From NCBI GenBank assembly GCA_039545335.1, contig BCIN01000006.1:124001-188000 (forward strand): a stretch of DNA of 64,000 nucleotides, written 5' to 3'. This stretch comes from Kondoa subrosea (Eukaryota). Of this stretch, positions 1,602 through 33,432 are shown piece by piece (positions within the stretch are counted from its first letter, which is position 1; each line of letters opens with the position of its first letter). The notes beneath the pieces are model-generated. The model was not told where the DNA came from. It made no database searches and saw nothing but the letters and a program-made list of their open reading frames with translations. The translations under genes and the position numbers were made by a program.

Positions 1602-3269
1602 TCACCTTGACCAACTACACTCTGGATCCGCTTCATCATACGTATCTTCAGCCAGTAATCCTGAATCGAATTTCGCTTCATCGACTTTCGGGAGCCCCTC
1701 ACTGAGCAGTTCTACAGCCTGACGAATTGATGTAACACGACCGTAGAGCATCAAGATTGGTTGATCTGCCTTAGTATAGATGATCTTGTAGTATCGCAGC
1801 AGAGCTCGACTGCGAATCGTTCCCAGTTGGATGTTGCTAAAGTATTGAGACCAATGATGTGGTAAGAAAAACTTGTAGCGCATCTGCTCAGAGTAAGATG
1901 ATTGTCGAATACGAGGTGGTTTAGCGCGAGGATCTGCAGATCAAGCCTTTGCAGACATATTCAAAGAGTCTGAACAAAAGACATACCTCCTTCACTGCTC
2001 CTTGGTGACGATCCAGCCCGATTCGCAGCCCGATTTGAAGTAATCTCTTGCAATCTCAGGTCTCCAACATCTTCGAGCTCTTCCAAATGCTTGTTTAGGT
2101 AGTCAATCAATCTTTCAGCTGCGGCTAAAGTGCCCTAGTCTCTGCGTTCAATACGACACCACTCCGTATATGTCTATCATACTCACCTCCATTCGCAGAG
2201 TACCTCCAGCCTGCCAATGATCATACAAACGCAGCCAAACCAGATCAAATCTCGCAGCTAACCAGCTAGGTGAAGCAATAGTCTTTGTATCGAAAGCTTT
2301 CACCGTGCCTCCACCTAATCTGACTTCAAAACAACGCGAATCTTCTTCGATGCCTTCAGGATAGACTTCTCTTAATCGCTCCGATGCAAAAGTAAGATCT
2401 CGGTCAAAGTTAGGTGTTTTCCAGATCGTTCGGTTGACTTCTTCACATATTTGCTTGATTCGAGAACGAGTGCCATGCAGATGAAAGGTACTTCGATGGT
2501 CAAGAGTAGGGTAAGACGGAAGTTTGTGTTCGCTATGCATTTTGCGAAGATTGTGACCGCTAATGCCAATGATTGCGCCGCGGAGGGAAGGGTTGATTTG
2601 CATCGTGTACGTGTAGATTGGATCTTCCTCGACTCCCAGTTCACGCTCTTTTGCTTCAGCTTGTTCGGAGTGCTCTTCATCTTGGCTGTGCACCTCAGGT
2701 TCAGGAGAAGGAGAGCGACGGCCTTTCACTTGTTTTAGTGAAGAGAGATCGATCTTGTCAAGGTTGCGAATCGGAAACAAGGCTGAAAGGTAATCCAGAG
2801 CTTTAGCAAGAGAAGCCTCAGTTCCGTTCATCCAAAGAATAGTGCCCTTCTCCAAGATGTAGACTTCCTTGACACCGATTGAAGTAATCACTCTGTCAAT
2901 AGCTGGTCCATCTCGATCTTGAAGCATAGGTTGAGAAATATACAAGGGACAAGCTTTCAGGACCTGCTCGTCCAACCAAGGATGAAAGGTAGCAGCAGAT
3001 TGAGCAGTCTCTGTACGAGCATGACCACGATAGAAGGAGAAGTCGGATTGAGCAGTGGAAGAGAAAGAGCTGGCCGTAGCAATTCTTTGGTGACTGCGAA
3101 TAGCAAGGTAGAGCGACATCGACACAGAGCACAATCGATGGAAAGGGGAAGTCCCATACCTTTTGCTAAAGCTTTGAGAGCGCTGTCTCTTTCGCAGAGT
3201 ATCACGCAGATCTATCTCTTGCTCAGTGAAAGGACCAAAGATTCGTTTGCCTAGTGCAGTGTCTGCCAT
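1602..3269 (-). CDS. KH-domain protein, copy A (about 4 KH-like units, one with a GxxG loop); 3 introns
   Basis: ORFs 2148-3308 and 1602-1883 can be joined by GT-AG introns. YTMQINPSLRGAIIGISGHNLRKMH matches the type I KH pattern. A close paralog lies at 22525-24192. Confidence 0.8.
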
Positions 3270-3546
3270 TCTTGACACAATGCAATGGAACAACAGCAAA
3301 GGGAGCACATCAAGAAGCTTGTCGGAGCTACATCAGCCAATTTGTAGCCGAAGAAGTTCCCAAAGTGAGGCTTTGACCTTGTTTTTTTTTTTTTTGAGCT
3401 TGTCGACATGCTTTGACGCGTTTCTACGTGACTGAGTCGCTGAAATGACCTGCCATGGCGTATATCTGCTGATCTAGATGCCTAGTACAGCTGGGTATCA
3501 TCGATGTTGGCGGAAAAGCGAGATTTTGGAGAACTCATTTCGTGAG
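1607..3546 (-). repeat. Left arm of ~1.9 kb inverted repeat
   Basis: The reverse complement aligns by eye with 22256-24172 across promoter, exons and introns. Confidence 0.95.
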
Positions 3547-3675
3547 ATTGTTGTTGACTGCCACAAACTCTCTTCTTTCTATTCCTCTGTGTCTCGTCTC
3601 TCTGCTATTCTGCTTCTAGACCTCCGTTCTTCTTGCAGACTCGCTGCTTTCCCTTCCTTGATCTTCACGTTGAGC

Positions 3676-4895
3676 ATGAGCCGACTTTGGAATGGCTACC
3701 TCTACTACTTACGGACTCGCACGCTCAGCACACAAATGGCAACGTGCGGTGTATGTATCTCTTTCATGCTTCTTTTTCTGGACTGAGTGTGTATCATAGA
3801 GTCTGTACTTGACCTATCTCTCGTTCAATGAATTGCTCTAAACTTGTCTCAGAATGGGTCTCAGCGACAGTGAGTATACTTCCAACTTGGTCTTTGACTT
3901 AATCCGAGTGATCAGTTGTGTCACAGCAGTTTATCGAGACGAAAGTAAACGGCAAACATAATGTGAAGGTTTCTTCTCCCCTGTGTTGTGATCGACTGAT
4001 TGCTAGTAGCTTGTTCGGACTGCTCGCTATGCCTTTTATGTAAGCTCAGCATTCAGGCCAATTCAACCCAATTCACATGTCTGCAGGGCGCTTGCTGTTA
4101 TGCCCCAGTACGCTGTTCTGTCGAACATTGTCCGATCGCTGATTGTCTGGCTCTAGCTTGCCAACAGATGGAATTTCGTTCTCAACAAAATTAATCTTGC
4201 TCGACCGATAGCAAGTGAGCTTGTTCAATGAATTTTGTTCGTCAGCTCACAATATCAAAAGCAACATTCGCAAGAGTGGTCACTGACATGGTGCGCTACA
4301 TACGATATGAAGTGATCCAGCTGATTGGTAGATCAAGGCCGTCATGGGTCCTGGTAAGCAATACTTTCTTTCCCATAAGATTGCCCTTCCCATGTCACTT
4401 GTTGACAGGCGGCCCTTGCTTCTTCTTTGTCTGTATGGGCTTACTAGAAGGCCGGAACTTCAGCGGTATCAAAACGCGACTACAAGAGGTAAGCTCGTAG
4501 TCATCTCACCGATGCCTTTGAAGCATCCTTTTCTTCCCATAGAAATGGTACGATGTATGGAAAGTCGGACTCTTCGTGTTCCCACCCGTTCAAGCTATCA
4601 ACCTAACATGTGAGTCTTTCATCTGCTAACTAAAGTCCGCTTTCCTGAGGATGTTGATAGTCACACCGCTCTATGCTCGGCCTATTGTGATACACTGCGT
4701 AAGTACCCGATAATGTACTACTTCTTCTGACTGCTGATAACATACAATGCAGGTCTTCTTCTGGTAGGCTTCCGAAGTACTGATATAGGGCAGATCTAGA
4801 CTGAGCACTGCCGGCTCAGTTGGGGACTCTTTCTACAGTCACAAAATAAGCAAGAGCCGACAAGTACTGAAATCGCTGGCTCTATGACAGCATAA
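3676..4895 (+). CDS. Mpv17/PMP22 (Sym1-like) membrane protein, copy 1; many small exons
   Basis: Exons read MSRLWNGYLYYLRTRTLSTQMAT, ATFARVVTDM, GPCFFFVCMGLLEGRNFSGIKTRLQE and VWKVGLFVFPPVQAINL, which are typical of the Mpv17/PMP22 family. Confidence 0.85.
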
Positions 4896-21873: not shown

Positions 21874-22255
21874 GGCTTGGAGATTTACACCTGCTCGAGA
21901 GCAGAGAATCCTCAGATGATTGCGAGTAACTGTTTGAGCAGCTAAGGCTAGATAGAAATGGCGGAAAGGAAGAGATTACGACTTCCTGTCGAGGCATATT
22001 CGACACAAAGGAAATAGGTTCGAGAGGGAGTTTCTCATCTGTAATATTGAGCACGCAAGGTCGTAGCTATAGGGCAGCAGTTGAACGAGACACAGTGCAA
22101 TGGATTTACATTGACGACTGAAATGAAAGGTAAGAGTGAAGTCAGACAAGAGGCCGCAACCTAGCGAAGCAAAGGGTTGAAACTGATTGAAAAGAAGCAC
22201 AGAGAAGACAGCAGGTATGCAGAGGGAACAAAGACCTGTGGCAGTCCGTGCCATG

Positions 22256-24172
22256 CTCACGAATCAGTTTCTTCGAAATCTCGCTTTTCCGCCAACATCG
22301 ATGATACCCAGCTGTACTAGGCATCTAGATCAGCAGATATACGCCATGGCAGGTCATTTCAGCGACTCAGTCACGTAGAAACGCGTCAAAGCATGTCGAC
22401 AAGCTCAAAAAACAAGGTCAAAGCCTCACTTTGGGAACTTCTTCGGCTACAAGTTGGCTGATGCTGCTCCGACAAGCTTCTTGATGTGATGCTCTTGCTC
22501 TTGTTCCACTGCGTCGTGTCAAGAATGGCAGACACTGCACTAGGCAAACGAATCTTTGGTCCTTTCACTGAGCAAGAGACAGATCTGCGCGAGACTCTGC
22601 GGAAGAGACAGCGCTCTCAAAGCTTCAGCAAAAGGTAAAGCTTAGCCTTACATTCAACTGTGCTCTGTGCCGATGTCGCTCTACCTTGCTATTCGCAGTC
22701 ACAAAAGAATTGCTACGGCCAGCTCTGTCTCTTCCACTGCTCAATCCGACTTCTCTTTCTATCGTGGTCATGATCGTACAGGGACTGCTCAATCTGCTGC
22801 TACTTTTTATCCTTGGTTGGACGAGCAAGTTCTGAAAGCTTGTACCTTGTACATCTCGAAACCTATGCTTCAAGATCTAGATGGACCAGCTATTGACAGA
22901 CTAATCACTTCAATCGGTGTCAAGGAAGTTTACATCTTGGAGAAGGGCACTATTCTGTGGATGAACGGGACTGAAGCTTCTCTTGCCAAAGCTCTGGATT
23001 ACCTTTCAGCCTTGTTCCCGATTCTCAACCTTGACAAGATCGATCTCTCTTCACTCAAACAAGTTAAAGGCCGTCGCTCTCCGTCTCCTGAACCTGAGGA
23101 GCATAGCCAAGATGAAGAGCATTCCGAACCAGCTGAAGCAGAAGAGTATGATCAGGAAGTCAAAGAAGATCCAATCTACACGTACACGATGCAAATCAAC
23201 CCTTCCCTCCGCGGCGCAATCATTGGCATTAGCGGTCACAATCTTCGCAAAATGCATAGCGAACACAAACTTCCTTCTTACCCTACTCTTGACCATCGAA
23301 GTACCTTTCATCTGCATGGCACTCGTTCTCAAATTAAGCAAATTTGCGAAGAAGTCAATCAAATGATCTGGAAAACTCCTAACTTTGACCGAGATCTTAC
23401 TTTTGCCTCGGAACGATTGAGAGAAGTTTATCCCGAGGGCTCAGAAGAGAATTGGCGTTGCTTTGAAGTCAGATTAGGCGGAGGAGCGGTGAAAGCTTTC
23501 GATACAAAGTCTATTGCCTCACCTAGCTGGTTAGCTGCGAGATTTCATCTGGTTTGGCTGCGTTTGTATGATCATTGGCGGGCTGGAGGTACTCTGCGAA
23601 TGGAGGTGAGCATCGTTCAAATATTCCGAGTGGTGTCGTGTTGAATGCAGAAACTAGGGCACTTTGGCCGCAGCTGAAAGATTGATTGAATACCTGAACA
23701 AGCATCTGGAAGAGCTCGAAGATGTTGGAGACCTGCGATTGCAAGAGATTACTTCAAATCAGGCTGAATCGTCACCAAGGAGCAGTCAAGAAGGTATGCC
23801 TCTGTTAGACTCTTTGACTATTTGTTCCAAATGCCTGATCTACAGATCCTCGCGCTAAGGCACCTCGTATTCGACAATCATCTTACTCTGAGCAGATGCG
23901 CTACAAGTTTTTCTTACCACATCATTGGTCTCAGTACTTTAGCAACATCCAATTGGGAGCGAACCGCAGTCGTGCCCATCTCCGATACTGCAAGATCATT
24001 CATTCTGCGAAAGATCAACCCATCTTGATGCTCTACGGTCGTGTTGCATCAATTCGACATGCTGTGGAACTGCTCAATGAGGGACTTCCTAAAGTCGTCG
24101 AGGTGAAATTCGATTCAAGTTTACTGGCTGAAGATACGTATGATGCAGCAGATCCGGAGTGTAGCTGGTCAA
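22256..24172 (+). repeat. Right arm of ~1.9 kb inverted repeat
   Basis: Reverse-complement match to 1607-3546. Confidence 0.95.
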
Positions 24173-24192
24173 AACGAACTGTACAAAAGTAG
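22525..24192 (+). CDS. KH-domain protein, copy B
   Basis: Same exon structure and same GAIIGISGHNL motif as copy A. The frame is intact across ORFs 22667-23644, 23664- and 23896-24192. Confidence 0.8.
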
Positions 24193-32271: not shown

Positions 32272-33432
32272 GTAAGCAAGCTTTGCTACCCTCGCAGAGT
32301 TGTTCTGACTGTGACATATTACAGAGCTTTACCTCTATCTCGCTCGGTGCAACCTTTCACCTCTTGAATACCTTACGTTTCTTTCCTACATACATAACTG
32401 CTCCCCATCCAAGTCGGATCAACTCCCAGCTTCTTTCGGTCCTTGGCTCGTCATGGCATGATTCACTAGCATGCGATTTCTCATACCTCAGGCTCTCATC
32501 ACCAGGCAATCAACTTGAATTGGGAGGATTCTCGAGCCATTTATAGTTTTATCTATCTGTATATCCGTCACTTTGTATGGCTTTCTGCTGTTTGAATGGT
32601 CACATCGTATTATGTAATACATCATATACTTCAGAGCTTCAAAGCTTGGAGGTTACTTTTCTTGTCCCAAACCAAAAATCGCATCAGCCAAACATTCAAG
32701 CCGTGACGGCCTTTTACTATATGACCGATGTACCTTGAAAGCAAGACCAGCTGCTTTCGTGTGCGTGTAATCGAGCTTGTCGAGCCGTTTGTGGAAGCAT
32801 GCCACAACACGACTTTGCAGCTTTCTCTCTATCGGCGCTCCGCAATTGGTCTCTGAGCTGAAATGTACAGTCTAGGGAAGTCGCAATGAGTCTGTTATCA
32901 AGTACTCTTCAAAGAAACCTTGAGGAAATCAATCTCCCTAGACTTGAAGTCGTAAATTCTCTCGCTCGAAATCGCTGGTTTCACTGCCTTCGTATCATCC
33001 ACTTGTCAGTACCTCCAGGGTTTGCTCCCATTATTATCAGGGGTATCTCATCATCTTCTCGAGTCACGTATCATGGAATATCTACCCTGCGCCAAATCAA
33101 TGTACATTCATTGGATAAATCTTTCGAACGGCTGTCTCAATCAATTCTACTGCTAGCTATCGCTATATCCACCTGTCTGTTTCTCGTGTGCTTGAGCCTA
33201 GCTATACTGGGGTCTCCGAATCATCATGGATCATCAGACTGTACAGCCATCCTTCGTCATGACTAATATAGTGATTGCAACCGCGGTCAGAAAGCTTTGT
33301 TTTTCAGTACGGCGTACAAAAGGCCTGATTTTCAGTTCTCTCTTCCTCTCTCTCTCTTCATCATTTATACCTTGCATTCGATATCCTCCATCCTATATCC
33401 TCATTTTGTTCTGTTATATACCCCTCATCAAG

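Follow-up and report, generated by a model that had tools for sequence, protein, structure and literature searches.

The question raised by this locus is why two old copies of a gene, which differ in their coding sequences and in their introns, share an upstream stretch of non-coding DNA that is, apart from the length of a single homopolymer run, identical base for base. The window (the whole stretch of DNA that was analysed, 64 kb) is eukaryotic and fungus-like, with a GC content of about 45% and short GT-AG introns in its genes. Within it, an inverted duplication was delimited by repeat search, blastn and global alignment, and its two arms are as follows:

1607..3565, minus strand: left arm of the inverted duplication
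22237..24172, plus strand: right arm of the inverted duplication

Each arm holds a single whole gene together with about 300 bp of DNA upstream of it, and the arms lie in mirror-image orientation with a spacing of about 18.7 kb (~19 kb). In blastn, positions 1607-3565 were paired with positions 24172-22237. When 1607-3565 was aligned globally with the reverse complement of 22237-24172, the alignment comprised 1960 columns with 180 substitutions and 25 gap columns; identity was 90.7% over ungapped columns, and the length of the duplication was 1.96 kb. A duplication larger than these arms was ruled out, as tblastn with the frames of the flanks (55 inner, 21 outer) revealed no similarity past either arm end (the best match had an E value of 0.009 over 21 residues). 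The duplicated genes, hereafter KH-like, are transcribed outward, and their upstream regions point into the 19-kb middle. When 53 stop-to-stop frames from 1-30 kb were searched against Pfam, only Vps36/EAP30, PEMT, GFA, V-SNARE, Bsd2, and a weak G-alpha match were obtained; HMG, homeodomain, and receptor domains were absent from this search of stop-to-stop frames, which intron-rich genes may escape. The middle between the arms is thus predicted to carry ordinary housekeeping genes (Vps36, PEMT-like, GFA-like).

The arms may plausibly have arisen through an inversion with staggered breaks. According to Ranz et al. 2007 (PMC1885836), such inversions leave inverted, gene-sized copies at both ends of the inverted segment, and duplications of this kind accompany 17 of 29 Drosophila inversions, with copies about 88% identical and up to ~1.9 kb long. 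The arms described here are comparable (90.7% identity, 1.96 kb) and, as in the Drosophila cases described there, would represent an ancestrally unique sequence that now bounds a segment on either side in inverted copies. The staggered-break model accounts for the origin of the arms, but not for the identical 177-nt stretch within them.

The gene in each arm was modelled with four exons; the model was read from the sequence, and the same model is open in both copies:

1602..3269, minus strand: left KH-like gene, 498 aa (exons 3269-3160, 3093-2187, 2134-1987, and 1933-1602, stop included)
22525..24192, plus strand: right KH-like gene, 499 aa (exons 22525-22634, 22699-23605, 23658-23793, and 23846-24192, stop included)

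The left gene has GT-AG introns of 66, 52, and 53 nt, and in both copies the reading frames and all splice sites are intact. Comparison of the pair yielded a dS of 0.231, a dN of 0.051, and a dN/dS of 0.22, values that place both copies under purifying selection. That both are intact with a dN/dS of 0.22 indicates an old pair rather than a fresh duplication. Two features of the gene models were also noted. At about 2013-2036, the left copy has an in-frame insertion of 12 nt relative to the right copy, giving four extra codons in exon 3; this insertion resembles a tandem duplication, with CAGCCCGATT occurring twice, 12 nt apart. Intron 1 is 66 nt long and in frame in the left copy (3094-3159), where a prokaryote-style ORF call reads through it, and is 64 nt long and breaks the frame in the right copy (22635-22698); between the copies, its 3′ two-thirds are nearly identical and its 5′ third is scrambled.

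Evidence on the encoded protein came from several searches. The Pfam domain KH_1 (PF00013) was matched by the left protein at 15.0 bits (E 0.021) and by the right protein at 16.9 bits (E 0.0054), both under the gathering cut-off of 21.5. Atlas neighbours of the protein were all KH_1 clusters (0.77-0.81), which we treat as a lead only. The KH topology is beta-alpha-alpha-beta-beta-alpha with a GxxG loop. Overall confidence in the AF2 model of the protein was poor, with a mean pLDDT of 48.2; residues 159-224, where it was best, were predicted as strand-helix-helix-strand-helix (E-H-H-E-H) with a pLDDT of about 69-79, and an IGISGHNL loop (GxxG) can be read from the protein sequence. A sequence search of the PDB returned a single match at chance level (E 0.74). 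Among 1.84 billion representative proteins there were three matches, two of them true relatives (P0002 and P0004, each with 40% identity), and P0003 was dismissed as a spurious match to a low-complexity repeat protein. P0002 and P0004 are environmental or Logan proteins. Both read into an intron at the same position as in the KH-like gene, which suggests that they come from eukaryotes sharing its gene structure. A word-based search for homologous proteins gave no match among 2573 candidates. On metagenome contigs, none of 184 pattern matches was confirmed as a related locus, and the palindrome-and-spacing pattern of the upstream region (see below) had no match. By these comparisons, the KH-like protein belongs to a rare, lineage-restricted family.

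According to the earlier note, the reverse complement of 22276-22452 reproduces 3342-3526 in all but one T-run (14 versus 6), and the alignment bore this out, with 177 identical sites. The features concerned, hereafter the core and its homopolymer, are:

3342..3526, minus strand: identical core, left copy, 185 nt including T14, with 0 substitutions in 177 aligned sites
22276..22452, plus strand: identical core, right copy, 177 nt, from the alignment with the left copy
3382..3395, no strand assigned: homopolymer T14 (A14 on the sense strand of the gene), with six at 22407-22412 in the other arm

When gaps are ignored, the core is the longest identical stretch of the arms (177 nt, 3342-3526 versus 22452-22276). 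Read strictly, its identity consists of 137 nt (3390-3526) plus 40 nt (3342-3381), with only the T-run between, and the length of that run is the sole difference within the core. The borders are sharp: a mismatch stands at 3341, and mismatches resume from 3527 onward. In both arms the near edge of the core lies 73 bases upstream of the ATG; its far edge lies 257 bases upstream in the left arm (ATG at 3269) and 249 bases upstream in the right arm (ATG at 22525). On the sense strand, the order of elements is a palindrome cluster, the A-run, about 110 nt, and the ATG. From this position, the core is the predicted promoter/5′-leader of the KH-like gene.

This identity contrasts with the remainder of the arms. 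While the core differs at 0 of 177 sites, the three introns differ between the arms at 11/64, 11/52, and 11/51 sites (17-22%), the 72 nt between the core and the ATG differ at 11, and in the 60 nt distal to the core 33 sites differ; overall, the other non-coding parts of the arms differ at 15-22% of sites. Older divergence is thus found on both sides of the core, with introns and a dS of 0.23 in agreement. At the intron or synonymous rate, 35 differences would be expected in the core, and the probability of 0/177 is about 1e-17. The possibility that a run of this length is expected by chance at the overall divergence, which would have undercut the observation, was examined by permutation. When the 180 substitutions were placed randomly, a run of at least 177 was reached in 0 of 200,000 permutations (mean longest run 58; 99.9th percentile 121); when indels were also counted as events, a run of at least 137 occurred in 28 of 400,000. 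Chance therefore does not explain the core, which by the criterion used in GENECONV is an identity run beyond the overall divergence.

Changes in the coding regions are real as well. The replacements listed previously, AKERELGVEED versus AEEYDQEVKED and LGTIRSRALLRYY versus LGANRSRAHLRYC, were both found in the two proteins. The core had accordingly been described as reversing the usual pattern; it is indeed identical while the coding parts have diverged, but the description was overstated, as one block of the coding sequence is 165/166 identical:

2462..2627, minus strand: second near-identical block, coding, over the KH GxxG motif, with 1 difference (2517) in 166 nt

The block comprises identical runs of 110 and 55 nt around the difference at 2517, synonymous sites included. 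The coding part has therefore diverged unevenly, and the contrast between coding and non-coding DNA is less clean than it first appears. In a scan of synonymous sites along the CDS, the minimum was 1 difference in 40 synonymous sites, which was matched in 128 of 3000 permutations, and synonymous differences were mildly patchy, with the observed dispersion reached in 128/3000 and 48/3000 permutations. The block is possibly an older or a second conversion tract, with marginal statistical support. The longest synonymous-silent run was also considered as proof of a second tract and was rejected as not significant, since 5193 of 50,000 permutations reached the same length.

The reading that we regard as probable is that the core was produced recently, by a short tract of interlocus (ectopic) gene conversion from one old inverted paralogue to the other. 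Gene conversion between paralogues is a well-known, ordinary process. Recent copying from arm to arm would explain at once why the core is fully identical, why its borders are sharp, and why the flanks carry older divergence, and of the interpretations offered in the earlier note, a recent gene-conversion or crossover tract is the one best supported, given the absence of differences where 35 were expected. At the start of the event, the DNA of one KH-like copy would have broken at or close to its promoter, and homologous recombination would then have mended the break from the other copy. A plausible trigger would be a break in a nucleosome-free promoter region, and a poly(dA:dT) run of 14 bases lies in the core; promoter nucleosome-depleted regions are described in PMC6237102 as the places where meiotic breaks form by preference in Saccharomyces, Arabidopsis, and maize. 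Repair would have overwritten at least 177 bases, the tract ending distally where homology stops (~3565/22237) and proximally at 3341/3342. The T-run of 14 versus 6 might reflect later slippage or an 8-base loop that escaped conversion. As the tract happens to cover the promoter, both paralogues would now have one common upstream sequence, and the evidence contains no sign of selection for a shared promoter sequence. Because no substitution has accumulated since the event, the tract would be no older than about 7% of the divergence time of the arms (95% bound).

Further observations bear on this conversion reading from both directions. The patchy synonymous differences and the block at 2462-2627 fit other exchanges between the copies, although the independent evidence of such further exchange is only modest. 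Counting against it are the 8-base length difference within the core, which a single clean conversion would have erased, and the richness of the core in 8-bp palindromes, which hints at function and so at constraint. The core is wholly non-coding and so offers no synonymous sites for separating selection from conversion. The comparison behind this reading covers the two arms of a single genome.

Comparable tracts are described in other systems. The parts of PMC3966223 relevant here report conversion between inverted paralogues, reaching into introns and other non-coding parts and recognised by GENECONV logic, and those of PMC3071340 report conversion tracts in hsp70 promoters and 5′UTRs. The inverted hsp16 modules and hsp70 pairs of Caenorhabditis (PMC3966223) resemble the present locus in being inverted paralogues on one chromosome, and the promoter/5′UTR tracts of Stratiomys hsp70 (PMC3071340) resemble it in lying over non-coding DNA. 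Tracts in both systems, as described in these parts, likewise show complete identity over a length greater than the flanking divergence predicts, and the length of the core (at least 177 nt) falls within the ranges that they report. In contrast to these hsp cases, the present locus was studied in a single genome, involves a lineage-restricted KH-like gene, and has its best tract wholly outside coding sequence.

The alternative that survives best, which we nevertheless consider unlikely, is that the core is a cis-regulatory module (promoter/UAS plus 5′-leader) kept identical in both copies by purifying selection, in which dimeric transcription factors would bind the palindromes and the poly(dA:dT) run would exclude nucleosomes. 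Its position is suitable, 73 to 257 bases upstream of the ATG and, in the left arm, within a divergent intergenic region of 406 nt, and both paralogues are under purifying selection. The core had also been described as dense in short palindromes, and all seven of those listed were found at 3401-3506:

3401..3506, no strand assigned: palindrome cluster, comprising TGTCGACA at 3401, ACGCGT at 3416, GACTGAGTC at 3430, GCCATGGC at 3452, ATCTAGAT at 3472, CAGCTG at 3488, and CATCGATG at 3499

Four 8-bp palindromes fall within 137 nt of the core, a count reached in 22 of 20,000 mononucleotide shuffles. The same density was found in 0.22% of the 137-nt windows of the 64 kb, which form three clusters, two of them being the two cores. 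The sole further place lies at about 33160-33300 and includes, for example, ACCGCGGT and AAAGCTTT. ACGCGT is rare in the 64-kb window (4 seen versus 12.8 expected). The enrichment is a post-hoc and modest signal, modestly unusual. The palindromes are compatible with putative sites for dimeric factors, but leave the base-perfect identity unexplained. Outside the cores, the four core 8-mers occur in the 64-kb window only as ATCTAGAT at 22875, which belongs to the coding part of the right arm; no other intergenic site in the window carries any of them, which argues against the module. A count of 0/177 would need every base to be constrained, including the spacers between the palindromes, and the constraint would have to be stricter than that on amino-acid replacement sites, for even at the non-synonymous rate (pN) of the KH-like gene 8.7 differences would be expected, with a probability of 0/177 of 1.4e-4. 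The borders are abrupt rather than graded, and the A/T run places the palindrome cluster 8 bases nearer to the gene in one arm than in the other.

A bidirectional form of this module had been proposed in addition, that is, a strongly constrained element serving genes on both sides. Divergent genes do flank the core. On the left, it sits between the ATG at 3269 (minus strand) and the ATG of a gene, the N-terminal part of which presumably resembles Mpv17/PMP22:

3676..4629, plus strand: Mpv17/PMP22-like divergent neighbour of the left copy (exon fragment 4543-4629 versus PF04117)

The fragment 4543-4629 matched PF04117 with an E value of 0.0016 and 18.9 bits, under the cut-off of 27. The ATG at 3676 lies 149 nt past the left core. 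On the right, the ATG at 22525 (plus strand) is accompanied on the inner side by minus-strand frames of no known family. The inner neighbours of the two cores are unrelated to each other, and a shared bidirectional role of the core is unsupported; together with the low probability of 0/177 at pN, this makes the proposed element unlikely. The inner flanks (3527-3660 and 22140-22275) are both pyrimidine-rich (CT-rich) when read on the strand that runs away from the KH-like gene, yet they are non-homologous; this composition fits with leaders of divergently transcribed neighbour genes.

Selection and exchange may also be combined. It seems quite unlikely to us, if conceivable, that the core is a palindrome-dense control module whose every base must match between the two paralogues, the match being maintained by purifying selection of near-absolute strength or else by repeated, selectively favoured conversion restricted to the promoter, and that it serves as well as a preferred exchange point for an occasional inversion of the 19 kb. 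If this were true, the KH-like proteins would share a single, identical programme of regulation even as they diverge.

Flip-flop mating-type switching by inverted repeats occurs in Ogataea polymorpha and Komagataella. The repeats there are essentially identical over their full length and flank MAT genes whose expression depends on orientation. The present locus is similar to these in having inverted repeats of roughly 2 kb that lie about 19 kb apart, and the core could in principle be the crossover site of a working invertible locus, at which recurrent inversion homogenises the core alone. The inverted geometry would permit inversion, and the identical stretch is situated at the inner edge of the arms. 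Unlike the repeats of those yeasts, however, the arms here are 90.7% identical, and the genes between them that could be identified by Pfam are of housekeeping types. With 180 substitutions, the remainder of the arms is 9% diverged, so that frequent flipping has not homogenised their whole length; no mating-type or alternative-expression genes were seen by Pfam between the arms; and neither KH-like gene, nor its proximal promoter, would be altered by a crossover within the core. The suggestion of a switching hotspot is thus unsupported, and we hold a working flip-flop locus to be very unlikely. It should be added that k=31 contigs of one sample, such as those considered next, are blind to inversion isomers.

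It is similarly very improbable that the perfect identity is partly an artefact, produced when assembly or polishing drew the two arms into one consensus and so lost a few real differences. Collapse of this kind was checked on Logan contigs (k=31 de Bruijn) of two DNA runs, X1 and X2, which come from one sample and one study, this sample probably being the source of the sequence (stretch shares 0.93 and 0.92); no RNA run was listed as carrying the stretch. In both runs, the core formed its own contig of 185 nt, exactly 3342-3526. Its depth was 85.5 and 191.7, compared with 56-58 and 146-147 for the unique flanks (1.3-1.5 times), and it had two continuations, a loose end at 3533 running on into right-arm sequence. 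In the coding part, paired contigs for the two arms were present. A separate core contig with raised depth and two continuations is the graph expected of a true two-copy exact repeat at k=31, and two copies were thereby supported. At position 2517, X1 contained only C and X2 only A. The Logan contigs thus merge isolated differences between the paralogues, which demonstrates that short-read graphs are capable of such an error, and an isolated SNP hidden in the core may escape them. One sample stands behind all reads, and contigs that probably come from the source sample itself fall short of an independent proof that the cores are perfectly identical. The assembly of the window, on the other hand, retains both the isolated difference at 2517, between the 55- and 110-nt identical runs, and the T14/T6 difference, which argues against wholesale collapse, and even a few hidden SNPs would leave the core far under the 35 expected differences.

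Finally, it is extremely unlikely that the core entered the locus, or persists there, independently of the arms, whether as a mobile element of small size, a gene for a small RNA, or a short ORF upstream of the KH-like gene. It is a discrete block with sharp ends, and an upstream ORF of 25 codons can be read in it on the sense strand. A mobile element or MITE was nevertheless ruled out by the presence of only two copies in the 64-kb window (blastn), by a contig depth of just 1.3-1.5 times that of the unique flanks (and hence not multi-copy in the genome), and by diverged homology that extends past the core on both sides in both arms and so makes it part of the ancestral duplicate, and a structured RNA was ruled out by an Rfam search of the core with no match at the gathering score (two weak, chance-level lncRNA matches, E 0.066 and 0.8) and by RNA folding of the core no better than that of shuffles (z 0.05 and -0.76).

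Although the significance of gene conversion at this core beyond the present genome is small, the locus would illustrate cleanly, from a single genome, that ectopic conversion can reset a promoter within a diverging pair of paralogues while their proteins continue to diverge. For annotators, it carries the caution that greater conservation of non-coding than of coding DNA between paralogues need not imply function. For the duplicates themselves, resetting of the promoter by conversion may delay regulatory divergence.
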